Both the position numbers and the translations under genes were made by a program. The notes below the pieces were generated by a model. It did no database searches. It worked only from the letters and a program-made list of their open reading frames with translations, and was not told the origin of the DNA. DNA of 64,000 nucleotides from IMG/VR virus record IMGVR_UViG_3300032132_000001, positions 106,573 through 170,572 of that record; one strand, 5' to 3'. This document shows, one piece after another, positions 21,100 through 36,269 of this stretch (positions within the stretch are counted from its first letter, which is position 1; each line of letters starts with the position of its first letter). The stretch is from a virus.

Positions 21100-21449
21100 A
21101 ACTCATCATTGCTGGCTCTCGCACTATCACCGATGTGGAATATGTAGTTGAATGTATCGAAGATTTCATCTCCAACTTGTGAGGGGAAGAGATCACCGAA
21201 GTCGTCAGCGGTCTAGCTGGCGGCGTAGACTCCATTGGCAAAGCCTGGGCCGATGAGATGGGCATTCACGTTGAACCTTTCCCTTATCCGGACGGTTATG
21301 GGCGTGCGGGTGGTCCGATCCGCAATGCTAAAATGGCCGAATACGGAGACGCACTACTACTCATTTGGGATGGGAAATCTCGCGGGAGCCAAAGTATGTT
21401 ACGAGAGGCAACAAAACGAAAGCTCCGCGTGCAAACTTACATGGTGTAA
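21096..21449 (+). pseudogene. SLOG/DUF2493 (YpsA-like) nucleotide-binding protein interrupted by an in-frame TGA at 21180
   Basis: MKLIIAGSRTITD...SNL*GEEITEVVSGLAGGVDSIGKAWADEMG...GPIRNAKMAEYGDALLLIWDGKSRGS. A continuous DUF2493-like sequence in one frame, except for the TGA. Confidence 0.5.
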
Positions 21450-21450
21450 C

Positions 21451-21654
21451 ATGAGAACTCTAGCCCTTTTCGCTCTGATCCTTTGTGGTTGTGGCACGTC
21501 TCGCCTAGACGTGATGGAAGAGCGTGTAGATGGGCTCGAAAAGCGGTTACACCACACTGAGACCGTATTGGTCTTAGAAGTGACGGGACAGATCGACCGA
21601 GAACGGGTCCGAGAATACATCCTTAAGCGCGCTCAAGAACAAGAGCAGCGCTAG
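21451..21654 (+). CDS. small lipoprotein
   Basis: MRTLALFALILCGC lipobox. The internal start of ORF 21235..21654. Confidence 0.45.
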   Translation: MRTLALFALILCGCGTSRLDVMEERVDGLEKRLHHTETVLVLEVTGQIDRERVREYILKRAQEQEQR

Positions 21655-21661
21655 GTACTAC

Positions 21662-21738
21662 GGCCCTATCGTCTAGTCTGGTTAGGACACCAGGTTTTCA
21701 TCCTGGCAACACCGGTTCGAATCCGGTTAGGGTCACCA
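21662..21738 (+). tRNA. tRNA-Glu(TTC)
   Basis: Acceptor GGCCCTA/TAGGGTC, anticodon loop TTTTCAT, CCA encoded. Confidence 0.75.
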
Positions 21739-21757
21739 GACATCTATAACATAACAG

Positions 21758-23083
21758 GTGGAATCCATGCTCCCAGCCCCAAAAGAAATCCATATCATCG
21801 GCGGCGGCACCTTCTTCCATGTTCGACCTCACCTAGCGCTCGCTGCTCCAGCTTTTGGAGCAACAGCAGAGAAGCTCATCAAGCTATGTGAAGATCGATT
21901 CCAGGAGAAGATGCTGGTATACTGCCATCGCACTAAGATGGCAGACTATGGAAGTGATATCGAGACAAATGAAGATGTCTCCAAGCTGTTAGATGAACTG
22001 ATCGAAGATCTCAATGTACGAGTAATCTTCCTCTCTGCTGCGCTGTGTGACTACGAAGGTACCATCCTGGATAAGAGCACTCCACATTGGGTGCAACCCA
22101 TGGACCAGGTACGCACGCCAAGCGGCAAACAGGCTGAACGCCTCCGCACGCAAGATGGTGAGCAGACCATGCTGCTTACTCCTGCTCGGAAGATCATCAG
22201 CAAGATCAGGAAGAAAAGGAAAGATATCTTCCTCATCGGGTTCAAGACCACTGCTGGGGCAAGCATAGAGGAACAGTTCGCCAGAGGGTTGAACCTGCTG
22301 AAGTCCTCGTCATGTAATCTTGTTCTCGCGAATGATATCCACACTCGCATGAACATGATCATCACTCCTGAAGAGTCCAACTACCATCAGACCACCGACA
22401 GGAATGAGGTTCTGAAAGAGCTAGTTGATATGGTGTGGCACCGCACCCACCTGACCTTCACAAGGTCAACTGTAGTGGACGGTCATCCAATCCCATGGAG
22501 TGACCATAGAGTTCCCACTGCTCTACGCACTGTGGTAGATCATTGCCGATTCAATGGCGCCTACAAAGAATTCAGAGGCTCGACCGTAGGGCATTTCGCC
22601 GCCAAGATCGACGAGACCACCTTCCTCACGTCCATCCGGAAGACTGATTTCAACGATCTCCACAACACGGGCCTGGTCATGATCAAGACCGATGGGCCCG
22701 ACTCTGTAATCGCCTATGGCGCAAAGCCGAGTGTAGGAGGCCAGAGCCAGCGGATCGTGTTCTCCGAGCATCAAGACTGCGACTCTATCGTCCACTTCCA
22801 CTGCCCGATGAAGGAAGGAAGCGAAGTACCCGTGATGAGCCAACGCGAGTACGAGTGTGGGAGCCACCAGTGTGGCCAAAACACCAGTAACGGCTTGAAG
22901 AGGTTTGGCAACCTCTACGCTGTAATGCTCGACCAGCATGGCCCCAACATCGTATTCAACAGCGACATTAACCCGCAAGAGGTCATCGACTTCATCGAGG
23001 CCAATTTCGATCTGAGCGGGAAAACTGACGGACTACATCAGACTCACTCCCCTGCTGGGATCCCCGCCGCTCCGCGTATTTGA
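21758..23083 (+). CDS. two-domain hypothetical protein; N-terminal Rossmann domain resembling CoaB/DFP (phosphopantothenoylcysteine synthetase family)
   Basis: HIIGGGTFFHVRP and SAALCDY resemble the CoaB motifs ITAGPT...VR and AAVADY. The C-terminal domain is unassigned. Confidence 0.35.
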   Translation: MESMLPAPKEIHIIGGGTFFHVRPHLALAAPAFGATAEKLIKLCEDRFQEKMLVYCHRTKMADYGSDIETNEDVSKLLDELIEDLNVRVIFLSAALCDYEGTILDKSTPHWVQPMDQVRTPSGKQAERLRTQDGEQTMLLTPARKIISKIRKKRKDIFLIGFKTTAGASIEEQFARGLNLLKSSSCNLVLANDIHTRMNMIITPEESNYHQTTDRNEVLKELVDMVWHRTHLTFTRSTVVDGHPIPWSDHRVPTALRTVVDHCRFNGAYKEFRGSTVGHFAAKIDETTFLTSIRKTDFNDLHNTGLVMIKTDGPDSVIAYGAKPSVGGQSQRIVFSEHQDCDSIVHFHCPMKEGSEVPVMSQREYECGSHQCGQNTSNGLKRFGNLYAVMLDQHGPNIVFNSDINPQEVIDFIEANFDLSGKTDGLHQTHSPAGIPAAPRI

Positions 23084-23134
23084 GCTGCAAAGATAGAAAA
23101 AGCGCTCCTGTCTCACCTCAAAAAGGAGGCAACC

Positions 23135-24085
23135 ATGCAAGTGCGCACTCCGGACACCGATGTAGGTGTCATCATCGGTCGATTCCAGGTTCCAACCCTG
23201 CACGATGGCCATAAGGGCCTCATCGACCATGTGCTGTCCAAGCACAAGAAGGTCTTGATCCTCGTAGGATCAACCCCCGGCATTCGCGCCACGAGGCGGC
23301 AACCCCTCGATTACCACACGCGATTGCTGATGATCCAGGAAGAGTATTCACAAGTCCTGGTCGCTCCCATCACCGACATGCCCTCTGATGAGGATTGGTC
23401 GAGAATGGTGGACGGCAAGATTTATGATACCTTCCAAACTCCATCTGCTGCGCTATATGGCTCCCGTGATGGTTTCATCCCCCACTACAGTGGCAGGTAT
23501 GAGACTGTAGAGCTTGCTTCTTCGATTGACACTTCCGGTTCGAAAGTGCGGAAGGATATTTCAGATGAAGTGCGCCAGCACGAAGAGTTCCGCCGAGGCG
23601 TCATCTATTCGTCGTTCGCCCGCTTCCCCACGATGTATGCTACCGTGGATGTTGCGATCCTGAACGATCTAAACGACTGGATGATCGCACTTTGCAGGAA
23701 ACACAATGATCCTCCTGGGATGTACCGATTCCCAGGCGGCTTCGCAGACCCAAACCAGGATAAGACATTCCTGGAAGCTGCGAAGAGAGAGGCTGAGGAA
23801 GAGTTGGTAGGAGGAATCTTCAAGGATTTCGAATACGTAGGCTCCACCTTAGTCCATGACTGGCGCTACCGCAGCGAAAGCGACAGCATCATGACCACTC
23901 TGTTCGCTGCGAAGCATCATGGTGGTGAACTTGAGCCAGGTGATGATCTCCGAGGTGGAGAGATCAAGTGGTTCAACGTGAGGGACATGGACGATGAAAT
24001 CCTCCTCCCTCAACACCGTGGTCTGATTACTTTGGTGCGGAACCATATTGGTTGCGCAGTCAAGAAAACCAAAACCAAAAAGTAA
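23135..24085 (+). CDS. natV: bifunctional NMN adenylyltransferase / Nudix hydrolase (NatV-like)
   Basis: Nucleotidyltransferase HxGH motif (GRFQVPTLHDGH). C-terminal Nudix box REAEEELVG. SD AAAAGGAGG. Confidence 0.75.
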   Translation: MQVRTPDTDVGVIIGRFQVPTLHDGHKGLIDHVLSKHKKVLILVGSTPGIRATRRQPLDYHTRLLMIQEEYSQVLVAPITDMPSDEDWSRMVDGKIYDTFQTPSAALYGSRDGFIPHYSGRYETVELASSIDTSGSKVRKDISDEVRQHEEFRRGVIYSSFARFPTMYATVDVAILNDLNDWMIALCRKHNDPPGMYRFPGGFADPNQDKTFLEAAKREAEEELVGGIFKDFEYVGSTLVHDWRYRSESDSIMTTLFAAKHHGGELEPGDDLRGGEIKWFNVRDMDDEILLPQHRGLITLVRNHIGCAVKKTKTKK

Positions 24086-24110
24086 CCCGCCTTACGAAAA
24101 GGAGGCAATC

Positions 24111-25511
24111 ATGGGTAAGCAGAATCTGTTGCTCCTCACCGACTCGTACAAGCTCTCACACTACAAGCAGTACCCGGCGAACACATCCAACGTGTACTCG
24201 TACTTCGAGAGCCGAGCAGGAGCTAAGTACAAGACTACCACCTTCTTCGGTCTACAGTACTATCTATACAAGTACCTCGTAGGCCGAGTGGTGACAAGAG
24301 GCGATATCGAAGTGGCTGCGAATATCGCCAAGACTCACTTCAACTCCGATGCACTTTTCTACAAGGAAGGGTGGGAGTACATTCTCAAAGAGCATGACGG
24401 CCACTTGCCGATCAGCATCAAGGCAGTGCCAGAAGGTACCAAAGTTCCCGAAAGCAACGTCATGATGACGATTGAGAACACCGACCCCAACTGTTGGTGG
24501 CTCCCAAACTATCTGGAAACGTTGCTCGTGATGTTGTGGTACCCGAGCACCGTAGCGACGACTTCAGGCCACGTGCGGGACCTCATCAAGCTTGGTCTGG
24601 AAGAGACTGGCGATATTGCCGGCCTTCCTTTCAAATTGCACGATTTCGGTTTCCGTGGCTCGACTAGCGTCGAGTCGGCTGGCATCGGCGGTTTGGCCCA
24701 CCTGGTCAACTTCATGGGCACCGATACTATCGCTGCCTTGACTACGGGCATGGAGTACTACGATAGCGGTTGCGCCGGTTTCTCGATCCCGGCCTCGGAA
24801 CACAGCACGATCACGTCCTGGGGTGAAGATGGAGAGCTGGAAGCGTTCCGCAATATGCTGAAGCAGTATCCGACCGGTCTGGTCGCCTGCGTAAGCGACA
24901 GCTTCGACATCACAGCCGCTTGCAGCGACCTGTGGGGAACCAAGCTCAAGGACGAGGTACTGGCACGGGAAGGTTGCCTGGTCGTAAGGCCGGATAGCGG
25001 CGATATCGTTCCCACGGTGTTGCACGTCTTGGATACTCTAGGTGAGAAGTTTGGCACCTACGAGAACGACAAGGGCTACCGGACGCTGAACGACAAAGTG
25101 AGGGTTATCCAGGGTGACGGTTGTACGCCCGAGACTATCTCACAGGTCGTGCGGAACATGGTGCGCGAGAAGTGGTCGGTGGACAACATCGCCTTCGGCA
25201 TGGGCGGTGGGTTGCTCCAGAGGCTGGACCGCGACACGCAGCGCTTCGCTTTTAAGTGCAGCAGCGTCGTTGTGGACGGCAAGGAGCGGGACGTGTACAA
25301 GCGGCCCGCCACAGATCCCACGAAGAACTCCAAGCGCGGCCGGCTGGCCCTGGTCCGCGAAGATGGGCAGTTGACCACGATCCGTGAAGAGGATCTCGGC
25401 AACCGTGAGGACCATCTCAAAGAGGTGTTCCGGGACGGTGAGATCTTGATCACCGAGGAATGGGGCAACATTCGCGACCGAGCGGCTGGTCTGGCACCAG
25501 TCAGCGCGTAA
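24111..25511 (+). CDS. nadV: nicotinamide phosphoribosyltransferase (NAMPT/NadV)
   Basis: LLTDSYKLSHYKQYP and overall NAMPT-like sequence. The start was taken at the Met with SD AAAAGGAGG (ORF track 24048). Confidence 0.8.
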   Translation: MGKQNLLLLTDSYKLSHYKQYPANTSNVYSYFESRAGAKYKTTTFFGLQYYLYKYLVGRVVTRGDIEVAANIAKTHFNSDALFYKEGWEYILKEHDGHLPISIKAVPEGTKVPESNVMMTIENTDPNCWWLPNYLETLLVMLWYPSTVATTSGHVRDLIKLGLEETGDIAGLPFKLHDFGFRGSTSVESAGIGGLAHLVNFMGTDTIAALTTGMEYYDSGCAGFSIPASEHSTITSWGEDGELEAFRNMLKQYPTGLVACVSDSFDITAACSDLWGTKLKDEVLAREGCLVVRPDSGDIVPTVLHVLDTLGEKFGTYENDKGYRTLNDKVRVIQGDGCTPETISQVVRNMVREKWSVDNIAFGMGGGLLQRLDRDTQRFAFKCSSVVVDGKERDVYKRPATDPTKNSKRGRLALVREDGQLTTIREEDLGNREDHLKEVFRDGEILITEEWGNIRDRAAGLAPVSA

Positions 25512-25559: not shown

Positions 25560-26045
25560 GTGGAGGAGCCGATGCCTATCATCAGAGTAATGCGTAAGCA
25601 GTATACTATCGCAGGCCGCCGTAATTGGGATAGGGTATATTGGGCGATCGATTTGCATTCTACCCTCATCATGCCCAATTACCAGAGAATGAAAGCGGAA
25701 GATGTGGAGTACTACCCACATTCTCTGGAAGTAATGCAAGCACTATCAGAGAGGTCGGATGCCAAACTGATGATGTATACATGCTCATGGGACCGTGAGA
25801 TCCTCGAATATCAGAAGCGCTTCCGTGCTGACGGAATCCTCTTCGATTGGGAGGGTCACAACCCTGAAGTGAATCAGACGGAGTATGGGTGCTACACCAA
25901 AAAGCCGTATTTCAACATCCTGCTCGACGATAAAGCCGGCTTTGATCCGGATAACGATTGGATACGTTTATTGGAGGCGCTGGAGCAACTTCCAGTGCTA
26001 GATCCAAATGGCCCAGTCCTACCTTCTACAAATAGTACGGGTTAA
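25560..26045 (+). CDS. hypothetical protein
   Basis: 161-aa ORF. Confidence 0.4.
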   Translation: MEEPMPIIRVMRKQYTIAGRRNWDRVYWAIDLHSTLIMPNYQRMKAEDVEYYPHSLEVMQALSERSDAKLMMYTCSWDREILEYQKRFRADGILFDWEGHNPEVNQTEYGCYTKKPYFNILLDDKAGFDPDNDWIRLLEALEQLPVLDPNGPVLPSTNSTG

Positions 26046-26578: not shown

Positions 26579-27718
26579 GTGTTCAACGGACGGTTACTAT
26601 TAGGTCCTGGTCCTAGTCTCGTCAGTGAAAAGGTCCTCTGGGCGATGTCCCGCCCAACGATTGGACACCTAGACCCCGAATTCATCAAGATAATGCGAGG
26701 GGTGCAGGACAAACTCCGCCAGGTCTTCCAAACCAGCAACGAGCTGACCTACCCTGTCTCTGGCACCGGCACAGCCGGCATGGAGACCTGCCTCACCAAC
26801 CTGATCGAACCAGAAGATAGGGTTGCCGTGTTGATCAACGGTGTCTTCGGTCAGAGAATGGCCAATCTGGTTCGTCGCCTAAGCGCCGGGACTTGCTACG
26901 AGATCAACTTCCCGTGGGGGTCCCCAATCGAACCTAGCACAGTCAAGGATATCCTTGACTCTGAAGGATCATTCGACGTAATTTGTGCGGTCCACATTGA
27001 TACCTCCACTGGTGTTCAGTCGGATATATGCTCTCTCGGTGAGATAATCCGAAGCGACAATGAAGATACTGTCTTCATAGTGGACGCGGTGACTTCCTTG
27101 GGTGGTTCGGAGCTTTACGTGGACGCCTGGCAGATCGACGCATGTTTCTCTGGTTCTCAGAAGTGTCTCTCTTGCCCTCCGGGCTTAGCTCCCGTCACGT
27201 TCGGCCCGAGAGCCCTCAAAAAGCGGAAAGCACGGAAGACGGCCCTTCCGAGCTTTTACTTTGACATCTTAGAGCTTGAGAAGTATTGGGGCGATGATCG
27301 GGCTTATCACCATACAGCCCCTGTAAACATGATTTACGCTCTAGACGCGGCACTCGATGACGTGCTAAGAGAAGGTCTAGAAAATAGGTGGGAGAGGCAC
27401 AGGAGGGTGTCGGTCAATCTGGTGCATCAGCTTGAGAAGATGGGTATAGAATTACTACCAACTTTCAATACTGCGTCGCGCCCTCTTACCGCAGTGAAGA
27501 TCCCCGAAGGAGTATCTGACTCTTTCGTGCGAGATGAACTTCTGTCCGGGTACAACATCGAGATTGGTGGTGGGCTTGGAGAGTTGAAAGGAAAAGTTTG
27601 GCGAATCGGCCTTATGGGCGAATCAGCTAGAAACGTACATGTACGGACGCTTGTGGAAGCACTAGAAGACGTCCTACGGAGAGAAAAATGGAAAGCGAGT
27701 TCCCAACCAAAGGCGTAG
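26579..27718 (+). CDS. class V aminotransferase (PLP-dependent, AGXT/PhnW-like)
   Basis: 379 aa, GTG start. SGSQKCLSCPPG contains the PLP lysine context. Global class V fold pattern. Confidence 0.6.
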   Translation: MFNGRLLLGPGPSLVSEKVLWAMSRPTIGHLDPEFIKIMRGVQDKLRQVFQTSNELTYPVSGTGTAGMETCLTNLIEPEDRVAVLINGVFGQRMANLVRRLSAGTCYEINFPWGSPIEPSTVKDILDSEGSFDVICAVHIDTSTGVQSDICSLGEIIRSDNEDTVFIVDAVTSLGGSELYVDAWQIDACFSGSQKCLSCPPGLAPVTFGPRALKKRKARKTALPSFYFDILELEKYWGDDRAYHHTAPVNMIYALDAALDDVLREGLENRWERHRRVSVNLVHQLEKMGIELLPTFNTASRPLTAVKIPEGVSDSFVRDELLSGYNIEIGGGLGELKGKVWRIGLMGESARNVHVRTLVEALEDVLRREKWKASSQPKA

Positions 27719-28107
27719 CAATCGGCTGCGGTATTCTTTTTACCCTTATCGTCGCCACGATGGTCGTCTGGCCACAGTATCGGGTATGGAGCAAGGAGCT
27801 GGAAGGTAAAGCGAAGCTCAAAGAGGCCGAGTGGAGCCGCCAGATCGAGATTCAAGAAGCCAAAGCCAAGATGGAAGCCGCAAAGAGCCTCGCGCAGGCC
27901 GAGATCGAGCGCGCCAAGGGTGTAGCCGAAGCCAACAAGATCATCGGAGATTCCCTCAAAGGGAACGAGTCTTACCTCCGATATCTCTGGATTCAGGGCC
28001 TCCACGACGGAAATAGTGAGGTCATCTATGTTCCGACCGAGACCAACCTACCAATCCTTGAAGCTACTCGCAAGCTTCAGAAACCAATAGAAAAGGCCAA
28101 GAAGTGA
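27688..28107 (+). CDS. membrane-anchored SPFH/prohibitin-like protein
   Basis: N-terminal TM helix. C-terminal Ala/Glu/Lys-rich region resembles the HflC/prohibitin C-terminus. Confidence 0.4.
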   Translation: MESEFPTKGVAIGCGILFTLIVATMVVWPQYRVWSKELEGKAKLKEAEWSRQIEIQEAKAKMEAAKSLAQAEIERAKGVAEANKIIGDSLKGNESYLRYLWIQGLHDGNSEVIYVPTETNLPILEATRKLQKPIEKAKK

Positions 28108-28283
28108 TGTTCTTAGACAAGCTCCTCGAATTCGGAGCAATGTTTATATGTTTCATGTTCAAGCTAGCAATGAGGCTAGTATTGTCGCCATTTGTTCTTT
28201 TTGAATGGCTAACCAAACCAAAGAAAAACAATGACCCTTGGCCAAATGTTCCAAGGCCAGGTGAGAGAGGCGGAATAAGATGA
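28107..28283 (+). CDS. small membrane protein (58 aa)
   Basis: Read by hand. The ATG overlaps the upstream TGA. Hydrophobic. Confidence 0.25.
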   Translation: MFLDKLLEFGAMFICFMFKLAMRLVLSPFVLFEWLTKPKKNNDPWPNVPRPGERGGIR

Positions 28284-28855
28284 AAATCCTACTAGATATG
28301 GATGGGGTATTGTGCAACTGGGTAAAGCCGGTTTGTGAGCTTCTCGATGTACCCTATCAAGAAACCTTGGATAACTGGAAGGTTGGTACTCACAATCTAG
28401 CCGGCAATCTTGAAATGGACAGAGCCAAGGTTTGGGAGGTCATCGATAGCGCAGGAGAAGATTTCTGGGCCAACCTGGAATTGTTCCCTTGGACTGAAGA
28501 CATGTGGGAGCACTGCGAGTCTCTCGCAGACACCTACATCCTCACCTGCCCTTCGCTCCACCCCCAGAGCTTGTCTGGTAAGCTGAGGTGGATGCAGAAG
28601 CACCGCAACCGCTTCTTCCGGAAGTACCTCGTCGGCCCTCCCAAGTTCTTGTGCGCCGCCGAAGACACGTTGCTGATCGATGACAAAGACGAGAACATCG
28701 AGAAATTCATCGAGAGAGGCGGCAATGGTATCCTGTTCCCACAGCCCTGGAACAGGAACCATGAACTAGCGACGGAGCCAGCGGTTCGACTCAAATATGT
28801 GAAAGATCAGCTCGCTGAGATCGTAGAAACTCACCGGACTGAATATATTCACTAG
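28280..28855 (+). CDS. HAD-family 5'(3')-deoxyribonucleotidase-like phosphatase
   Basis: Motif I LLDMDGVL. Later IDD motif. Confidence 0.55.
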   Translation: MKILLDMDGVLCNWVKPVCELLDVPYQETLDNWKVGTHNLAGNLEMDRAKVWEVIDSAGEDFWANLELFPWTEDMWEHCESLADTYILTCPSLHPQSLSGKLRWMQKHRNRFFRKYLVGPPKFLCAAEDTLLIDDKDENIEKFIERGGNGILFPQPWNRNHELATEPAVRLKYVKDQLAEIVETHRTEYIH

Positions 28856-28859
28856 TAAA

Positions 28860-28937
28860 GCCGGCGTAGCTCAGTCTGGTCAGAGCGGCTGATTTGTAAT
28901 CAGCGGGTCGGGGGTTCGAATCCCTCCGCCGGCTCCA
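28860..28937 (+). tRNA. tRNA-Thr(TGT)
   Basis: Acceptor GCCGGCG/CGCCGGC, anticodon loop TTTGTAA, CCA encoded. Confidence 0.75.
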
Positions 28938-28939
28938 CG

Positions 28940-29263
28940 ATGACTAGTTGGAATAAACTAAGAAAACGTGCTCACCTAGCTGCAATCTGGGACGGATCTT
29001 CCATACCCAAAGTCACTATGCTCGCAAAAGTCGCGATCAGTGAAGCAAAATACAGAAATTTCAAACCGGTAATAGACGAAGAAACTCTGGCTGATCCAGA
29101 ATTTATACCGGATGGCATCCTCCTGGACCTCTTCGCCAACGAAGAAGAGGAATATCTACTTGATTTAGAAACCGATATAGTATACATAATGGCGCGCGGT
29201 TGCGCTCAAAGCCAAGCCAAAAACGCGGAAGATATCAAGGCGATCATTGGCGCCTGTATATAA
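28940..29263 (+). CDS. hypothetical protein
   Basis: 107-aa ORF starting right after the tRNA. Confidence 0.4.
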   Translation: MTSWNKLRKRAHLAAIWDGSSIPKVTMLAKVAISEAKYRNFKPVIDEETLADPEFIPDGILLDLFANEEEEYLLDLETDIVYIMARGCAQSQAKNAEDIKAIIGACI

Positions 29264-29290
29264 CCATACAAGCCTACCAGGAGGGCAAGT

Positions 29291-29770
29291 ATGCGAGTAA
29301 TCGAAGGGGTGAGAGTCCGTGATTTGAAGGTGATCACGGACGAACGTGGGCGTCTCATGGAGATGCTACGTTCTGACTCTGATATCTTCATCAAGTTCGG
29401 ACAGATGTACATGACCACTGCTTATCCCGGCGTGGTCAAAGCATGGCACTATCATAAAAAGCAGACTGATTACTTCGTCTGCGTAAAGGGTATGATGAAA
29501 GTCGTCCTTTATGATGATCGCCACGAGAGCCCTACCTTTGGAGAACTAAACGAGTTCTTCATCGGTGAACATAGCCCCCGAGTCATCGTCATTCCGCCTC
29601 TTGTTTACCACGGTTTCAAGTGCATCTCAGACACAGAAGCTATGGTGATCAATTGCCCCACTGAAGTGTACAACTACGATCAGCCTGACGAATATCGAAT
29701 CTCACCGCATCGCGGAGTAACAGAGTCAGGCGATCTGATTCCATACGATTGGAAGAGATCAGATGGGTAA
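29291..29770 (+). CDS. cupin-fold dTDP-sugar epimerase/isomerase (RmlC/FdtA-like)
   Basis: 159 aa with an RmlC-like cupin pattern. Adjacent to the sugar nucleotidylyltransferase. Confidence 0.5.
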   Translation: MRVIEGVRVRDLKVITDERGRLMEMLRSDSDIFIKFGQMYMTTAYPGVVKAWHYHKKQTDYFVCVKGMMKVVLYDDRHESPTFGELNEFFIGEHSPRVIVIPPLVYHGFKCISDTEAMVINCPTEVYNYDQPDEYRISPHRGVTESGDLIPYDWKRSDG

Positions 29771-30119
29771 CATTCAAGTTTGGTTTATCCCGGCGATGAT
29801 GGCCATTATGGTAGTCATCCTATTGGCCCGCCGCGAGATGAGGAAGCGTGCTTGTGCCCGGGGCGACCACCAGATCATGAGGAAGCATTGGTGCGGATAC
29901 TCCCTAGATGCGCCACAAGGGCACAGCGGATTTCGAGCTGTGGCCTACAGCCTGCACACGAGCTGGTTACAGTGCCGCTGTGGGTATCTCCCAGAAAGTG
30001 AAAAACGAGAAGTCCACGATTGTGATTCTATTCAGAGTTTGGAGATGCCAGACTACGATTGGCGTCGACTACGATCTGATCGTATACTGACCCAATCAAC
30101 ATGGTGGCGAAAAGCATGA
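29763..30119 (+). CDS. hypothetical membrane protein
   Basis: N-terminal TM helix. 118 aa. Confidence 0.35.
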   Translation: MGNIQVWFIPAMMAIMVVILLARREMRKRACARGDHQIMRKHWCGYSLDAPQGHSGFRAVAYSLHTSWLQCRCGYLPESEKREVHDCDSIQSLEMPDYDWRRLRSDRILTQSTWWRKA

Positions 30120-30874
30120 AGGGTATAATCCTAGCTGGAGGGTTGGGCACTCGCCTTTATCCTCTCACCAAGATCACCAACAAGCACCTCTTGCCGGTCT
30201 GGAATAGGCCGATGATCCACTACCCTCTCCAGATGTTGAGGGAGGAGGGGATCGATGAGATCTGTCTCGTCGTCGGAGGTACCTTCGCTGGCCAGTTCAT
30301 CCAACTCTTGGGTAACGGCGAATGCTTCAACCTGAAGCACCTTCACTACGTCTACCAGGAAGGGGAAGGCGGGATCGCTGAAGCTCTCCGCCTTACTCGA
30401 TCATTCGTAGAAGGGGAAGACGTCATCGTAGCTCTCGGTGATAACATCTTCGATTACCCGATTGATGATTTCATCAACGATTTCCATTCCCAGGAAGGTC
30501 CGAAGAAAGCACAGATCTACCTGGCAGAAGTAGACGATCCATGTCGCTTTGGTAATCCTGAAATCAGCGAAGATGATAAGATCGTCCGCATCATAGAAAA
30601 GCCAGATAAGCCTGTATCCAAGTACGCTGTAACCGGGCTGTACTGCTACGATTCTTCCGTTTTTGATGTGATCGACACTCTCGTGCCATCTGCACGAGGA
30701 GAGCTTGAAATCACGGATGTCAACAACGCCTATCTGAAAATGGGCGCTCTGGAACACACCTATGCAGATGGCTGGTGGACCGACGCCGGCACTTTTGAGT
30801 CTCTGCGTCTAGCTAGCGACCTAGTTTACAAGAAAGAGCGCCGCGAGTTTCGCGAGTTCGACAAGATGCTTTAG
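30116..30874 (+). CDS. sugar-1-phosphate nucleotidylyltransferase (RmlA/RfbF-like)
   Basis: MKGIILAGGLGTRLYPLT signature. The start is the internal Met of ORF 30101..30874. Confidence 0.7.
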   Translation: MKGIILAGGLGTRLYPLTKITNKHLLPVWNRPMIHYPLQMLREEGIDEICLVVGGTFAGQFIQLLGNGECFNLKHLHYVYQEGEGGIAEALRLTRSFVEGEDVIVALGDNIFDYPIDDFINDFHSQEGPKKAQIYLAEVDDPCRFGNPEISEDDKIVRIIEKPDKPVSKYAVTGLYCYDSSVFDVIDTLVPSARGELEITDVNNAYLKMGALEHTYADGWWTDAGTFESLRLASDLVYKKERREFREFDKML

Positions 30875-31128
30875 GGTAACTGGCATCTCACCACGAAGCG
30901 TGGCGGATTCCGTTGGTATTCCCAGTCTTCTGGGTTATATCCGTCAATGATAAATGGTCGGGTCCCCCCAAGCTTTTCCATTATTCCTCGTAAACTATTA
31001 AACTCAAAAGTCTGTACAGGACCGCCATATGGCTCGCTGCTACAAGCGATACCCATGTTTTCGATCTTGTCACGAGTCAATAATTCTGGCATTCGATGAT
31101 CTCCAAAAAATTCCTGCGTTAGATACAT
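30871..31128 (-). CDS. hypothetical protein
   Basis: ORF 30871..31254 trimmed to Met43. Its start overlaps the divergent plus gene in a CATG palindrome. Confidence 0.3.
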   Translation of the reverse strand: MYLTQEFFGDHRMPELLTRDKIENMGIACSSEPYGGPVQTFEFNSLRGIMEKLGGTRPFIIDGYNPEDWEYQRNPPRFVVRCQLP

Positions 31129-31531
31129 GAGTAGAGAAAAACCAACCCTCCCAGAAATAGTACATTTCTGGATTAGAGAATATATTGAAACGGTAGATGA
31201 TGTCTTTATTTCCTTCCCGGTTTTCATGGACGATGATTGGTATAGATCATTCAATGTGATCCACTTAGCACATAAGAAGTTCCGAACTAGAATGCACTTT
31301 GATATTCAGCTGAAGTATGTTGGGCTCTTTTGGGCTGTGGAGACTTACAGCAAGAAAGATATGACCAAGACGGAACTGAAAAGAGGGAAACCAGTCTTCC
31401 CTTATGATCCGGAGTTCTTTGACGATATAGGTACATATATTCAAGAGTGGATAACGGAGAATCTGGAGAAGGAAGATGAAGAAGAAATGCAGCAAATGCA
31501 AGGACCCGAAGGACCCGAGCGAATTCTATAA
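31127..31531 (+). CDS. hypothetical protein
   Basis: 134-aa ORF. Confidence 0.4.
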   Translation: MSREKPTLPEIVHFWIREYIETVDDVFISFPVFMDDDWYRSFNVIHLAHKKFRTRMHFDIQLKYVGLFWAVETYSKKDMTKTELKRGKPVFPYDPEFFDDIGTYIQEWITENLEKEDEEEMQQMQGPEGPERIL

Positions 31532-32099
31532 AGATAGTCGCAATAAAGATGGCCTACAGTCCGCTTGCATAGTATGCCACAAAGAAGTCTTGGCAGACTG
31601 GCGCTCCCGAAACAAGGATAAGGTCAAGAAGTATAATAAAGATAAGCGGCAGAGGAAGAAAGAAGGCATCGTGAAGAAACATCGATTCCAAAAGATTGCC
31701 ACGCTTTATTCCGAGATGGCAAAGGAAAGTGGTGTTCGCAACGAGCTGACCAAAGAACAGCTCGATACCGTCGCAGCGCATTGGCATAGCCGGTGCGTGT
31801 ACTGCGGAGAGATCTCTGAGACCTTCGACCATCTTTCTCCAATCACAGGTACCGGCCCAAACATCCTCTACAACGTAGTGCCAGCCTGCGAAGGGTGTGC
31901 CCTCAAGAAGAACGAGACAGACCTATTCTTCTGGGCGTTCATCGCGGGCAAGAAGATAGGCCCTATCTTGACCTGGGCAGCTCGCGACACCGAACTCATC
32001 AAAGAGTTGAACCGAATAAGGGAGAGGTCTTGCGCTCACTCTTTCCAATCAGAGATGAGAATAGCACTGAAGGCGGCGATCAGTAACCCTCAAAAATAA
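31476..32099 (+). CDS. HNH endonuclease-like protein with N-terminal zinc ribbon
   Basis: CSKCK...CIVCH. HNH core FDHLSPITGTGPNILYNVVPACEGCALKKNE. Confidence 0.5.
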   Translation: MKKKCSKCKDPKDPSEFYKDSRNKDGLQSACIVCHKEVLADWRSRNKDKVKKYNKDKRQRKKEGIVKKHRFQKIATLYSEMAKESGVRNELTKEQLDTVAAHWHSRCVYCGEISETFDHLSPITGTGPNILYNVVPACEGCALKKNETDLFFWAFIAGKKIGPILTWAARDTELIKELNRIRERSCAHSFQSEMRIALKAAISNPQK

Positions 32100-32102
32100 T
32101 CT

Positions 32103-32357
32103 ATGGACACTTCCGGTCTCATAGAAATCGCCCACATCCAAAATCTGACGCGCCAACCGGTCCAGATTATCGTAGACGAACCGGAAGAAGACACGGCTCC
32201 CATCCTGTTTGCAGGGAGCGGCTTAGTCTACCTCGCTCCAGGTGAGACGATCGAGGTGAGAGAGGAGCGGGTGAATCGCGGCCAACTGGAGTACCTGTTC
32301 CAGGAGCGGTTCATCTTCTTACGTTATATGCAGCGGGATATCGACGCCGTTACGTAA
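32103..32357 (+). CDS. hypothetical protein
   Basis: 84-aa ORF. Confidence 0.35.
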   Translation: MDTSGLIEIAHIQNLTRQPVQIIVDEPEEDTAPILFAGSGLVYLAPGETIEVREERVNRGQLEYLFQERFIFLRYMQRDIDAVT

Positions 32358-32724
32358 GTTCTTTGAGAAACGGTCGTCTCACCCCATCCGGCCCAAAGTT
32401 GGCAATTTGCCATCTTAGGGACGCAAACCGGACATTGATCCAGTAGCCGTCTGGGAATTCTGCTGCTTTGCCGTTCCTGTAATACGAAGGCGGGAGAGAC
32501 CAACTCTCTTCAGTAAGACTGACTTCCCAATCGGCCTTCTTGAAACCTCGCGCTCGTGCTTCTTGTCTGATTCGTTTCCAAACGGCTTCCCGAGCGGTCC
32601 ACCATCCGCATTCGACCCCGTACCGATGCTGAGATTCAGCTATTATTACTTCTACTAGATCTATAGTTTCTAGCTGTAGCTGATCTATAGAAACCGGAGT
32701 TAGTCCAAACAGCCATCTAAGCAT
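32350..32724 (-). CDS. hypothetical protein
   Basis: 124-aa ORF. Confidence 0.35.
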   Translation of the reverse strand: MLRWLFGLTPVSIDQLQLETIDLVEVIIAESQHRYGVECGWWTAREAVWKRIRQEARARGFKKADWEVSLTEESWSLPPSYYRNGKAAEFPDGYWINVRFASLRWQIANFGPDGVRRPFLKELT

Positions 32725-33214
32725 CTCTCAATATCCTTCGCACGTCGGTTAGGACCTCTCCCAACCAGTTCTTGCCGAGCCAGTCGATCCGGCGCTGGGC
32801 TGCAGGGTCACTCTCTCGCAGGCCAATGCCCCAGATCTTGTCATAGGGCGAAGCTTCTACTAGGGTAGTGCCTTCGGTATTTTCTAGTCTGTGTAGTAGA
32901 TGGGCGTTCTGAGTGAACTTAGCCACGTTTCCACGATGGACTATGTTCCAACAGCGTGGGCGGCCGTTTTCTTCGTCTTCAGTCCACGTGTCGAAGTCGA
33001 AATTCTGGACCTGACGCCCAAGCTTTTTCTGCACCTTGGGGCTGTCGCTCTCCATGATCATTCGGAGAGTCTCTTCGTCCTTGAAGAGACGTGCTTTCTC
33101 CGCCATCATGTACTGTTCTGCACAGTTATATTCTATGGTATCAATTGTGAAGTAGCTATAATACCATTGAGAGAAGGGGCCGTTCCAGAAGAACGTGAAC
33201 TGTTCGTCATGCAT
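32717..33214 (-). CDS. NADAR-domain protein (YbiA-like, DUF1768)
   Basis: FTFFWNGPFSQW...EQYMMAEKARLF...DWLGKNWLGEVL matches NADAR signatures. The start is the internal Met of ORF 32717..33406. Confidence 0.6.
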   Translation of the reverse strand: MHDEQFTFFWNGPFSQWYYSYFTIDTIEYNCAEQYMMAEKARLFKDEETLRMIMESDSPKVQKKLGRQVQNFDFDTWTEDEENGRPRCWNIVHRGNVAKFTQNAHLLHRLENTEGTTLVEASPYDKIWGIGLRESDPAAQRRIDWLGKNWLGEVLTDVRRILRDA

Positions 33215-33410
33215 TGATTTGGATTTCCATTCTCTTCTTGCACTTGGGACATTCGCACCGGAACTTGACATATTCGATCTGGTCAATTCCAGAGTCGTAC
33301 GACGTGACTCGGAGCCACATATTCTTGGGCGGAATGTCAACCTCACCACAGTCAGGGCATAGCACCTTGAAAGACACCATGGCAGGCTCGATAGTATAAG
33401 TATCACCCAT
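33207..33410 (-). CDS. small zinc-ribbon protein
   Basis: CPDCG...CECPKC. Confidence 0.4.
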   Translation of the reverse strand: MGDTYTIEPAMVSFKVLCPDCGEVDIPPKNMWLRVTSYDSGIDQIEYVKFRCECPKCKKRMEIQINA

Positions 33411-33576
33411 CTGATTTCTTACCGTAAACCTTTTGGAACTTTTCTTCTAAGCACTTCAGCCTATATTGCATTTGGGATATAGTACAATCCATACTGTGCT
33501 TCATGCCATTCAGACTGCTTTTCGCAGACTTAATTTCGTCAGCTAGTCTGGCTTGGACTTGATCCGTCTCTTCCAT
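33403..33576 (-). CDS. small coiled-coil protein (57 aa)
   Basis: MEETDQVQARLADEIKSAKSSLNGMKHS... Read by hand. ATGGGTGA overlap with the downstream gene. Confidence 0.25.
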   Translation of the reverse strand: MEETDQVQARLADEIKSAKSSLNGMKHSMDCTISQMQYRLKCLEEKFQKVYGKKSDG

Positions 33577-34060
33577 CTGACGCCTCCGTGCTTAGATCGG
33601 ACAGATCAAATACGGGAACGGCCGCTTCATTTGGATGTAAGAGCTTGTGGCAATGACGACATTTCGAGTCAGATAATAGGTTCTTAGTATGACAACTGCT
33701 ACATGCGGCTGTTTCTATCTTCTTGGGGCTCTTCTGGGAACGTTTCTTTGGCGCCCCTTCGCGGATGAAGAACTTTTTCGACTTTCGTAGTACCTTGTTG
33801 CCGCTCTTCTCTTCTCTGAGCATGAAGAGAACGCCCCGTTTGGTAATTTGGACGCCCTCGATGACAGCTGGTTGGTTGGAGCGGATACCGATAGCCGTCA
33901 CTGGCTCCCCGATAAGCTCGATCAGATTCTTAACTGTGAGTTTTTCAAGCTTCTTCTTATCGAGATTTTCTAGTATCTCTTTGGGAGTCATGAGGACATA
34001 CCTTCTGTTTGGAACGTCAGGGTCGTCGGTGATCAAGTCTGCGATGTCGTCAGGCTTCAT
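33539..34060 (-). CDS. hypothetical basic protein with N-terminal leader motif MKPDDIADLITDDPDVPN and C-terminal CxxCH...CxHCH
   Basis: 173-aa ORF. The N-terminal motif is shared with three other ORFs. Confidence 0.5.
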   Translation of the reverse strand: MKPDDIADLITDDPDVPNRRYVLMTPKEILENLDKKKLEKLTVKNLIELIGEPVTAIGIRSNQPAVIEGVQITKRGVLFMLREEKSGNKVLRKSKKFFIREGAPKKRSQKSPKKIETAACSSCHTKNLLSDSKCRHCHKLLHPNEAAVPVFDLSDLSTEASDGRDGSSPSQTS

Positions 34061-34062
34061 GG

Positions 34063-34323
34063 TTAGGTATACCGTAGAGCTTTCCCGATCATCATCCAGA
34101 GCGCTTCCAGCTCTGAGGTTGACATGTTAGCGTAGGAGCTGCCTAGATCCAGAGAGTAGAACGAGTTCTCTTCCATCTCTATTTTAGAAATTCCAACTCT
34201 AGTGATCAATTGGTGGATCTCATCCCCTACTACTTGGTCGTCTGGTCTCCGGACCAGGACAAATTTCTTGGCAGGAATTTCCATTTCATCGTGCCAGACA
34301 AGCTCAGCAGGGTCGTCGGTCAT
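34063..34323 (-). CDS. hypothetical protein
   Basis: 86-aa ORF with an ATGA overlap. Confidence 0.4.
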   Translation of the reverse strand: MTDDPAELVWHDEMEIPAKKFVLVRRPDDQVVGDEIHQLITRVGISKIEMEENSFYSLDLGSSYANMSTSELEALWMMIGKALRYT

Positions 34324-36269
34324 AGGTATTTCCTAACCACGTTGGGGTATTGTGCTCTTAGTCTGTTCCGAAGTTCATTTAGGGCTAATGGTTTGTTCGC
34401 ATTGTAGCGATTATAGAACCGCTGCATGATACCCTTATTTATCCTATGCCGCTTCTCCCATCCGGGAGATCTACCATGCCATAGATGGAACAAAGACACT
34501 GTTCTTTCATTGAAGAATTTGCAATTGTCCTTCAATCGAATGAAGAAGTCGCAATCTTCACACCCATAGCCAACGTAGGCATCATTGAACCCACCAACCT
34601 GGAAGTAAGTTTTCCTGTGGCAAGCTAGAGACCCTCCCTCGAAGTATCCCACTGCACGTTCGCATTCATTAGTTTCGGTCACCTTGCCCTTATTGAATAT
34701 CTCATGGGTGGTCCCATGGTTGAAATAGAGGACATATTTTCCAACGTGAACACCTTCATATTCATTTAGCAGTTTGAATATCTTCCCTGCATAGTCATTG
34801 GACATCATGATGTCCGCATCTTGGAGTAGTAGGCGTTCGGTCTGCGCCACTGCGGCCCCAAGGTTGAAGGCTACCGCTTTCGTGAATGGTTGGTCAGGAG
34901 ATTTCCCGGCGATTTGCCTGTGGGTGCATGGCCCAATCTTGTCATAGCGAACTTTCTTCATCACATCTTGTTCTACTACGATCAAATCAATGTGGGGGAA
35001 CAGTTGCCCCTTCATGTTCATGGCGACCGTTTCGATTACTCTTACATCGCGATCTTCGGCCCGGCACGGGATAATAATAGACATCCCAGGAACATCACAG
35101 CTTGGCGTAGCGTTTACTTTGATGCGGTTGTGATCTTTCTTGTGTTGGTTGAAGATCGACCTATTATCTCGAAGCCCAGATTTGGGCACTGAGGTGATCT
35201 CAGGGTGGATTTTGAAGAACTTATCAGCGCCATCAACGTCGTGGAAACCGGGCGGTTGAATCTTAGATAATCCCACGCGGTTAGACCAATCTACGTGCTC
35301 CATCCCATAGTAGCCAAACTGTTCATCGAAATATCCGACGCGCTGGAAGGCTGTTTCATCTAGTGCCATCACAGCACCATGTGGTTTATCGTGTATAGTC
35401 TTGATTATCTTGCCGCTGACTCTAGATCCTGAACCGTCTTTGGCCGTTGCACCATATACACCAGCCTGGCGATAGCAGAAGTGGTGGTACTTCTTGGTAA
35501 GCTCCATCACTTCAAAGTAGAAGCTGTCCCAACCACGGCTCATAATCTGAACGTCGTCATTCAGCAAGAGCTTATACTTGAATCTTCTCAAGCAGTTCAG
35601 TAAACGGTTGCTTTGACCAGCGATCCCCAACCGTACCGAATTGTCCAATAATACTATATCTTTCTGCTCTCGAAGCCATTTCTTCACTTCGGGCCTGTCG
35701 GACTCATCGCTTACGAAGATCGTCGTCTTGGACAGATCTGTGAAATTCCGGATTGAATCGAGCAGTCGTCGTATGCAGTGTAGCCTATTGTAACTTAGGA
35801 TTCCTACTCCGATGTTGTTGGAAATAGGAATGGTGAGACCAGAGGATTCAGCACGAAAGAGGCGCGTTGCATCTCCAGAAATAGCTCTGCCAACCATACG
35901 GCCTCTAGTTCGGCGACCAACATAGTTAGCTCGTCCTCGTTTCCGGGTCGGCTGTCTAGGCTTTCTCTGTCCACGTGGCGATTTCTTCCTATCACTATTG
36001 GGGTTTACCCCTGCAGCGCGTCTTCGTTTCACGATTTTTACTGCGCTCTTTTTTTTCAGTTTCCCCTTCTTAGTAGAAGGGCTCGGAAGGCTTATTTGCT
36101 CTTTCTGGGCGTCCCCTATGACCCGTACTTCCCGTAAGAACTGAGGAGAGTATTTGGAGAACCACTTGGGTAGTACAACCCTTGCCGACTTAGGTACTCT
36201 GATGACTTTGCCATCAGGCCCAGGCAGGGTTATACTGTACGGATGTGGGTTTACGTACTCTATCAGCAT
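34320..36269 (-). CDS. large glycosyltransferase with two GT2/GT-A-like domains and an N-terminal Lys/Arg-rich region
   Basis: Two separate GT-A modules: ILSYNRLHCIRRLLDSI...VSDESD and MSIIIPCRAEDRDVRVIETV...VEQD. Basic 90-aa N-terminus. Confidence 0.55.
   Translation of the reverse strand: MLIEYVNPHPYSITLPGPDGKVIRVPKSARVVLPKWFSKYSPQFLREVRVIGDAQKEQISLPSPSTKKGKLKKKSAVKIVKRRRAAGVNPNSDRKKSPRGQRKPRQPTRKRGRANYVGRRTRGRMVGRAISGDATRLFRAESSGLTIPISNNIGVGILSYNRLHCIRRLLDSIRNFTDLSKTTIFVSDESDRPEVKKWLREQKDIVLLDNSVRLGIAGQSNRLLNCLRRFKYKLLLNDDVQIMSRGWDSFYFEVMELTKKYHHFCYRQAGVYGATAKDGSGSRVSGKIIKTIHDKPHGAVMALDETAFQRVGYFDEQFGYYGMEHVDWSNRVGLSKIQPPGFHDVDGADKFFKIHPEITSVPKSGLRDNRSIFNQHKKDHNRIKVNATPSCDVPGMSIIIPCRAEDRDVRVIETVAMNMKGQLFPHIDLIVVEQDVMKKVRYDKIGPCTHRQIAGKSPDQPFTKAVAFNLGAAVAQTERLLLQDADIMMSNDYAGKIFKLLNEYEGVHVGKYVLYFNHGTTHEIFNKGKVTETNECERAVGYFEGGSLACHRKTYFQVGGFNDAYVGYGCEDCDFFIRLKDNCKFFNERTVSLFHLWHGRSPGWEKRHRINKGIMQRFYNRYNANKPLALNELRNRLRAQYPNVVRKYL

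Follow-up and report, generated by a model that had tools for sequence, protein, structure and literature searches.

The DNA considered here is a stretch of 64,000 nucleotides (hereafter, the window), positions 106,573 to 170,572 of the IMG/VR virus record IMGVR_UViG_3300032132_000001, and the genes in question are natV, nadV and the gene located directly upstream of them, whose product is referred to by the working name X441. The region 23135-25511 is probably a nicotinamide-to-NAD+ salvage cassette of the NARP2 type, located within a tRNA island, and X441 probably has a separate function, its adjacency to the cassette coming from the shared tRNA-island location. The features on which this reading is based are the following:

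23135..24085, plus strand: natV-like gene, 316 amino acids (aa), putative NadM-type adenylyltransferase of nicotinamide mononucleotide (NMN; aa ~5-160) plus Nudix hydrolase (aa 170-295)
24111..25511, plus strand: nadV, 466 aa, nicotinamide phosphoribosyltransferase of the Nampt type
23121..23137, plus strand: Shine-Dalgarno context AAAAGGAGGCAACCATG of natV, strong
24097..24113, plus strand: Shine-Dalgarno context AAAAGGAGGCAATCATG of nadV, strong
21767..23083, plus strand: X441, an orphan two-domain enzyme, 438 aa from the ATG at 21767 (441 aa from the GTG at 21758)

The product of nadV matches the Pfam models NAMPT_N (3e-37) and NAPRTase (1e-55) and passes the equivalog cutoff of NCBIfam NF006629 (597 bits, cutoff 405). 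It scores higher on human NAMPT (E 1e-147, 495 bits) than on Namat (9W5X/9W5W; E 1e-71, 245 bits), the first of these PDB entries having been identified as the phage paralogue that uses ADP-ribose pyrophosphate (PMC12774641). A crude motif search of the window, translated in all six frames, found no loop for phosphoribosyl pyrophosphate (PRPP) of the Prs/Adps kind. Since NadV is closer to NAMPT than to Namat and no such loop was found in the window, the pair is assigned to the NARP2 type and not to NARP1. A longer open reading frame (ORF) initiated by TTG at 24048 differs from the called nadV gene.

The similarity of the natV product to known proteins is more remote. Its C-terminal part is recognised as NUDIX (E 1.4e-11), while the N-terminus is weakly cytidylyltransferase-like: it carries the motifs GRFQ..HDGH and SGSKVR, matches a PHROG cytidyltransferase (1e-9) and reaches 20.1 bits on Pfam CTP_transf_like, slightly under the cutoff of 21. 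The solved relatives are NadM-Nudix proteins only, i.e., those of Francisella (2qjt) and Synechocystis (2qjo), with E values of 4e-6 and 3e-4. The family counts 385 homologues at E<=1e-5, several of which are called bifunctional NMN adenylyltransferase/nudix hydrolase by JGI; seven phage records of INPHARED match at the same threshold, none of them being KVP40. Three observations weigh against the assignment: bifunctional NMN adenylyltransferase/Nudix models rank first in NCBIfam, but with 53 bits against cutoffs of ~350-450; in the alignment with 2qjt and 2qjo, the GRFQ-HxGH motif has a two-residue insertion; and in the Nudix box the REAEEE core is kept, but the first Glu is replaced. Because these sub-cutoff scores, the motif insertion and the Glu change set NatV apart from the characterised enzymes, its activity is given here as a prediction.

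The arrangement of the two genes is conserved. In all six relatives examined (L167-L169, L251-L253), natV precedes nadV with gaps of ~0-75 nt; three of them (L167-L169) have the pair in the midst of tRNA genes, like this window, and another (L253) is cellular, an NrtR-like regulator standing 5' of the pair. Homology, domain architecture and this conserved adjacency support natV and nadV as a NARP2-type pair for nicotinamide-to-NAD+ salvage, the route named in the original prediction, although we infer both the enzyme activities and the anti-defence role. We recognise in the pair the classical salvage operon nadM-nadV, to which Osterman et al. gave the name NARP2 in phages; it is here a divergent new example of a known system. 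NARP2 is established in phages, where it overcomes Thoeris and other NAD+-depleting defences (Osterman et al. 2024, bioRxiv 10.1101/2024.02.11.579819), and the NAD+ salvage genes of jumbo phages have already been surveyed (PMC11662467). The NARP2 of Vibrio phage KVP40 (NadV and NatV) is alike in both predicted activities, in gene adjacency and in phage setting, whereas the NatV described here is highly divergent, and its cassette lies in the tRNA island of a ~400-kb phage. Likewise, the bacterial NadM-Nudix proteins (2qjt, 2qjo) share the layout of an NMN adenylyltransferase followed by a Nudix domain of the ADP-ribose pyrophosphatase type, as well as the same order with nadV in nadM-nadV operons, but similarity to the solved proteins is very low and no regulator gene stands beside the phage copy.

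According to the proposed mechanism, NadV would convert nicotinamide and PRPP into NMN, the NadM-type domain of NatV would adenylylate NMN to NAD+, and the Nudix domain would probably hydrolyse ADP-ribose or related dinucleotides. Both genes, each with a strong ribosome-binding site that matches the other's, would travel as a two-gene module, also in related large phages and in some bacteria, and the module would here be cargo of the tRNA island. It is possible, even if it is not what we expect, that the pair chiefly raises NAD+ for the consumers of the phage itself (ligases, ADP-ribosylation, RNA repair), countering host defence being secondary. NARP2 raises NAD+ even in defence-free cells (bioRxiv 10.1101/2024.02.11.579819), genes for PARP-like proteins, ADP-ribosylglycohydrolases and NADAR proteins exist in related huge phages, and the cellular locus mentioned above carries natV-nadV as an ordinary NrtR-regulated salvage operon; against this stands the demonstrated effect on Thoeris and other NAD+ depleters (same source), and the two roles can coexist. 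The NAD part of the region is a divergent example of a known counter-defence/salvage module, and it shows natV-nadV moving as a cassette within tRNA islands of large phages; this helps annotation and carries little surprise.

The translation signals of the two genes are matched, as had been noticed previously. The context AAAAGGAGGCAA[C/T]CATG precedes both natV (23121-23137) and nadV (24097-24113), and the 15-mer AAGGAGGCAAYCATG occurs in exactly two copies in the 64 kb against 0.03 expected. Besides natV and nadV, no AGGAGG-N5-ATG site exists in the window, where the full AAGGAGG is rare among the genes (crude survey). The shared signal is real and amounts to a pair of matched, strong ribosome-binding sites. 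A hairpin sequestering the Shine-Dalgarno sequence (anti-SD/SD) 5' of natV and nadV was considered and rejected, the folds having z values of -1.1 and -1.7 against shuffled sequences, which are not significant; no enrichment of the corresponding CACCT...AGGAG motif was found.

As far as transcription is concerned, the gap between X441 and natV is 51 nt long and that between natV and nadV 25 nt, and in scans of 20-29 kb no promoter or terminator signal exceeded the background of shuffled sequences. Co-transcription of the three genes is plausible in view of the common strand, the short gaps and the lack of a terminator above background. Shared transcription would be unspecific, since the whole block is on the plus strand (ORFs from 18.8 to 32 kb, tRNA genes from 7.2 to 28.9 kb).

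The 441-aa ORF described previously does exist from the GTG (21758..23083, plus strand), but the ATG at 21767 is the favoured start on account of the public gene call, the preceding AGGTGG and the N-termini of the homologues. The family is strongly conserved, with ~100 invariant positions in 30 aligned sequences; its public name is just the generic "class II aldolase/adducin family protein". Two domains can be recognised:

21767..22444, plus strand: N-domain (aa 1-~226), CoaB/PPCS-like nucleotide-binding fold with GGGT, VR.H and ALCDY motifs
22469..23032, plus strand: C-domain (aa ~235-422), class II aldolase/adducin fold with an HxH...H metal triad

The resemblance of the N-domain to CoaB/DFP, already pointed out from the sequence, is borne out by Pfam DFP (2.5e-6, 27.9 bits, cutoff 22) and by Foldseek, whose listed matches are CoaB, PPCS or Cab2 in 50 cases out of 50 (2gk4 at 3e-12, then 1u7w/1u7z, 6th2 and 7edz, down to 1e-7); the domain also matches phrog_35624 (1e-41). 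In comparison with CoaB/PPCS (the C-domain of E. coli Dfp, 1u7w/1u7z; S. pneumoniae, 2gk4; human PPCS, 7edz), the fold is alike, with a TM score of ~0.7 on the target, and the motifs GGT...VR, A(L)xDY, G-K...R-L-K and (V/L)ANDx are common to both, whereas the partner domain in X441 has a class II aldolase fold and takes the place of the CoaC flavoprotein. The equivalog-level scores for CoaB are far from being reached (NF005231, 44 versus 265 bits; TIGR02114, 32.5 versus 217; TIGR00521, 31 versus 220). Moreover, the Asn of the ...NHS(S/T)G segment of CoaB, which we take to be N210 of E. coli, needed for the second half-reaction, is absent: the family has HLALxAPAFG, with Ala/Pro opposite the Asn in an alignment to 2gk4 that is remote and whose register is uncertain by a few residues.

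The C-terminal domain, previously left unassigned, can be assigned to the class II aldolase/adducin fold, the members compared being FucA (1fua/4c25), RhaD, AraD, MtnB/APIP, the decarboxylase HMPDdc (2z7b) and OtnC/YgbL (6voq). The residues H343, H345 and H391 are invariant and align to the zinc ligands H92, H94 and H155 of FucA (sequence checked against 1fua); the hhalign comparison is weak (E 0.12), so the equivalence of the His residues also leans on the fold match. The catalytic position of FucA E73 and AraD D76 is not acidic: X441 has PSVG(GQSQ) against the PSSE of FucA, i.e., Gly or Gln where FucA has Glu73 (acid/base and fourth metal ligand). The family also has an invariant insert of its own, SQRExECGSHxCG. 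A profile search of PDB sequences with X441 did not reach any class II aldolase, and a fold search of BFVD with the full-length model gave nothing at E<=0.001. Of the two domains of X441, one is CoaB-like and the other resembles class II aldolases, yet by these tests the protein is not a CoaB, and it is no known aldolase, epimerase or dehydratase either. No published description of such a fusion in phages was found, jumbo-phage reviews and papers on the Candidate Phyla Radiation (CPR) included.

X441 is widespread. At least 3,451 homologues were counted at E<=1e-3 among 8,000 scored candidates; the best 120 are ~60-65% identical, many of them on contigs of 300-590 kb. An exhaustive profile search gave 303 clusters (50% identity) at E<=1e-30, stand-alone N-domains included. 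The latter also occur in cultured phages of Caulobacter and Pseudomonas, where they carry hypothetical-protein annotations; gp052c of Caulobacter phage CcrBL9, lying 3' of a stand-alone N-domain gene, was tried as the missing C-domain and rejected, as it shows no similarity. Taking one genome per GTDB species, X441 is present in 90 genomes, mostly of CPR (Saccharibacteria, Paceibacterota, Peregrinibacteria and others), the carriers outside it including Alphaproteobacteria and Bdellovibrio-like metagenome-assembled genomes (MAGs). In a complete Saccharimonadia chromosome of 1.19 Mb it lies amid ClpB, valyl-tRNA synthetase (ValRS), TsaD and a Mur ligase, and the synteny with ValRS was seen in nine genomes. 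A TrmB-type helix-turn-helix regulator of ~255 aa is located near X441 in 38 of 73 genome loci, mostly divergent and directly upstream (L127:7111-7866 on the minus strand, L097, L103, L114 and L166:10375-11145, as examples), which in CPR suggests a metabolite-responsive control of the X441 homologue. This synteny and this regulator in CPR chromosomes indicate that the family is cellular as well as viral.

The sole cultured-isolate genome with X441 is that of Sphingomonas sp. 3-13AW (L170, NZ_JASNVZ010000001.1, 581,572 bp), where the protein bears the generic name given above. In the 20 kb around it there are many small unannotated ORFs, together with an NAD-dependent ligase, UvrD, RuvB and ERCC4, and this 581-kb contig may be a huge phage or an episome. 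The strain was dropped as a proof of cellular origin, and the cellular distribution rests on the CPR chromosomes since this contig may be phage-like; if it is indeed a phage or an episome, it would provide a cultured system for X441.

The genes directly flanking X441 differ greatly between the 66 non-redundant phage loci: no common Pfam family exists among them, the top one accounting for 3 of 118 proteins. In 23 loci (16 genome, 7 phage), a protein of ~110 aa without Pfam match is encoded just downstream (L165:9812-10222, L131:4253-4582, L060:2771-3106, L081:11341-11664, for instance), with the motif PSALEGRRLRW..AWAxHNLxGHPxxQ..HDxTxP; it has no homologue in the window. An M23-peptidase-like gene recurs near X441 in nine alphaproteobacterial loci.

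The relationship between X441 and the NAD genes was evaluated by counting NatV-like and NadV-like genes around its homologues:

82 viral and huge-phage loci, within 10 kb of X441: NatV-like in 2, NadV-like in 2, both in 0
80 genome loci, within 8 kb of X441: NatV-like in 0, NadV-like in 0, both in 0
80 metagenome loci (36 of at least 8 kb), up to 10 kb: NatV-like in 1, NadV-like in 1 (weak), both in 0

Conversely, none of the six relatives of natV-nadV has X441 within 5-6 kb of the pair. X441 is thus rarely near NatV or NadV and absent at six cassettes out of six, and therefore it is not a conserved NAD partner; it would be a self-contained enzyme with a separate function, adjacent to the cassette only in this lineage. 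What the two have in common is their location: X441 has a tRNA or tmRNA gene at no more than 10 kb in 25 of 60 loci, and natV-nadV is surrounded by tRNA genes in L167-L169 and in the window. Both would thus often ride in tRNA islands, and the adjacency is best read as an accident of location involving two independent cargoes. More generally, adjacency in the accessory region of a huge phage is not evidence of a common pathway.

The original prediction had suggested that X441 extends the NAD pathway, and this would make it a third, accessory enzyme in a longer NARP2 pathway, carrying out a NadE-like amidation of a nicotinate nucleotide or processing ADP-ribose or ribose-phosphate for the salvage route. 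The location of X441 on the same strand, 51 nt 5' of natV and with no terminator in between, could indeed reflect a local functional tie. The chemistry of CoaB (an acyl-NMP, then an amide) is formally identical to that of NadE, and this likeness might be taken to favour the amidation. In addition, a gene for a NADAR protein, an ADP-ribosylglycohydrolase or a WGR-PARP protein lies within 10 kb of X441 in 20 of the 66 phage loci, although this is a raw count without background rate and the association is loose, the genes being kilobases off and variable. A precedent for an extra enzyme gene beside a phage NAD+ pair is given by the extended NARP1 operons, which contain the Macro-domain phosphatase Adpp (bioRxiv 10.64898/2026.01.28.702374) or RyDEP; according to the cited papers those accessories are tied to NARP operons, whereas X441 is untied to natV-nadV at all the other loci examined. 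The linkage amounts to 4/82, 0/80 and 2/80 loci, never with both genes; X441 lacks the matched ribosome-binding site common to natV and nadV; in CPR chromosomes it is vertically syntenic beside the TrmB-like regulator and ValRS; and the contact with a pathway that does emerge is with that of coenzyme A (CoA). A third enzyme of this kind is consequently very improbable, and any NAD-related role of X441 is highly doubtful.

With X441 regarded as a function separate from the cassette, our committed view is that it would be a two-step enzyme, combining an NTP-dependent carboxylate-activating or nucleotidyl-transfer domain with a metal-dependent domain of the lyase, epimerase or decarboxylase type, acting on a phosphorylated small molecule. 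CoA biosynthesis is the most specific contextual signal, a lead that comes from a minority of loci. The nearest relatives in fold and sequence are CoaB/PPCS, and homologues of X441 adjoin genuine CoA genes in independent lineages: in a Saccharibacteria MAG (L166, 7974-10372) the ORFs of X441, CoaB and CoaC form a chain, each overlapping the next, while CoaD and CoaE are 7 kb off; in an Uhrbacteria MAG (L131, 2122-4256) CoaB is directly upstream of X441; in two proteobacterial MAGs (L141, 4940-7772; L142, 6411-9233) a canonical CoaBC is divergent at 86-130 nt; and in a phage contig (L052, 8783-11300) a CoaD-CoaE fusion lies 39 nt upstream. CoaDE or CoaE is also found 2-7 kb off in four loci (L163, L094, L018, L248), and a MaoC-like gene (acyl-CoA hydratase fold) directly downstream in five CPR loci. 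These data might indicate that X441 works in pantothenate/CoA-type metabolism, at a step distinct from CoaB (an alternative 4'-phosphopantothenate route, salvage or repair), the NAD neighbour making the region one of cofactor supply. We consider it rather unlikely, as the contacts concern ~8-9 of ~200 loci and are enriched for direct adjacency only (a rough estimate without formal test), the CoaB Asn is not conserved, the NCBIfam CoaB scores are far under cutoffs, no CoA gene was found in the 64-kb window, and a Zn-type class II aldolase fold is no obvious catalyst for the known steps of the CoA pathway; a CoA or pantothenate-type substrate is, likewise, on the unlikely side. Since a canonical CoaB or CoaBC adjoins X441 in the four MAGs, X441 is unlikely to substitute for CoaB, and a step neighbouring or parallel to it is more plausible. 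The recurrent contact makes X441 a testable candidate for a missing cofactor step in organisms with minimal metabolism.

The tRNA-island location might instead reflect the function itself, X441 being a modification or repair enzyme for tRNA or RNA. The tRNA or tmRNA genes that accompany X441 in 25 of 60 phage loci (10 kb limit) share its strand without exception, no single neighbour recurs in the phage loci as often as Thg1-like genes (9/66 and 7/80), and RNA ligase, HD and metallophosphatase neighbours were also seen. These tRNA and Thg1 counts are raw, without background rate; no neighbour occurs in more than ~18% of loci, no RNA-acting relative is known for either domain, and the cellular homologues show no linkage to tRNA genes beyond ordinary housekeeping synteny, all of which renders this function quite improbable. 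A broader proposal would see X441 as the founding member of an unrecognised family of adenine-cofactor enzymes, in which a CoaB-like acyl-nucleotide ligase and a metal-dependent aldolase-fold domain would perform a previously undescribed step on which genome-reduced CPR bacteria and huge phages rely, forming one cofactor block with NARP2. It appears unlikely as a whole; within it, a CoA/pantothenate-type cofactor is the most likely and an NAD-type one less so.

A NADAR-domain protein had also been proposed to be encoded elsewhere in the window, and the search with Pfam agrees (8e-46; 156.6 bits, cutoff 35.1):

32717..33214, minus strand: NADAR-domain protein

Its gene is unlinked to the cassette, being 7 kb away on the opposite strand with more than ten genes in between, sugar-nucleotide genes included. 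In other huge-phage loci, proteins joining WGR and PARP-catalytic domains were noticed in eight IMG/VR cases (L022, 6101-7708; L024; L033-L036; L053; L086), and often at a distance of a few kb from genes for NADAR proteins and ADP-ribosylglycohydrolases.

The source of the window is a metagenomic contig of 397,419 bp with EF-Tu, RRF and DUF5131 among the flanking genes; this length, these genes and the 22 tRNA genes of the window together point to a huge phage (~400 kb). The tRNA genes, detected by ARAGORN, are all on the plus strand between 7215 and 28937, and the cargo between them includes DUF5131, X441, natV-nadV, a class V aminotransferase and NT5C. One of them lies upstream of X441:

21662..21738, plus strand: tRNA-Glu (UUC)

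The sole match of the region in a megablast search versus INPHARED was a tRNA. Related huge-phage loci contain tRNAs with a CUA anticodon (called tRNA-Pyl by ARAGORN; L036:427-501, L049:9625-9699, L053:7936-8010), which may be amber suppressors and a hint of stop-codon recoding, as well as tmRNA genes near the X441 homologue (L009:16946-17318, minus strand; L052:4187-4612, plus strand).

Some minor features surround the cassette. Upstream of X441, a 63-aa ORF (21258-21449, plus strand) matches the "GTP-binding domain" phrog_289 (E 1.6e-9) over 58 of 500 profile positions, and because of this short span it may be a gene fragment; it is overlapped by the ORF 21235-21654, a short peptide with a lipoprotein-like LILCGCG. 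Directly 3' of nadV, a 161-aa protein (25560-26045, plus strand) has a weak PHROG match to "phosphoheptose isomerase" (1.7e-6); its adjacency to nadV is not kept in the relatives, and a homologue was found 6 kb from X441 in L064. Farther on, the orientation flips at ~32000, the ORFs listed from 32.3 to 36.3 kb being on the minus strand, and a sign change of the AT skew coincides with the switch, so that a convergent transcription boundary can be placed there. The stretch 26579-36269 includes the class V aminotransferase, whose nearest models are of the pyridoxamine-pyruvate and PhnW types, all sub-cutoff, together with the NT5C nucleotidase, a dTDP-sugar-isomerase-like cupin, a sugar-1-phosphate nucleotidyltransferase and a 649-aa double GT2 glycosyltransferase, a gene set that suggests a sugar-nucleotide or glycosylation module.

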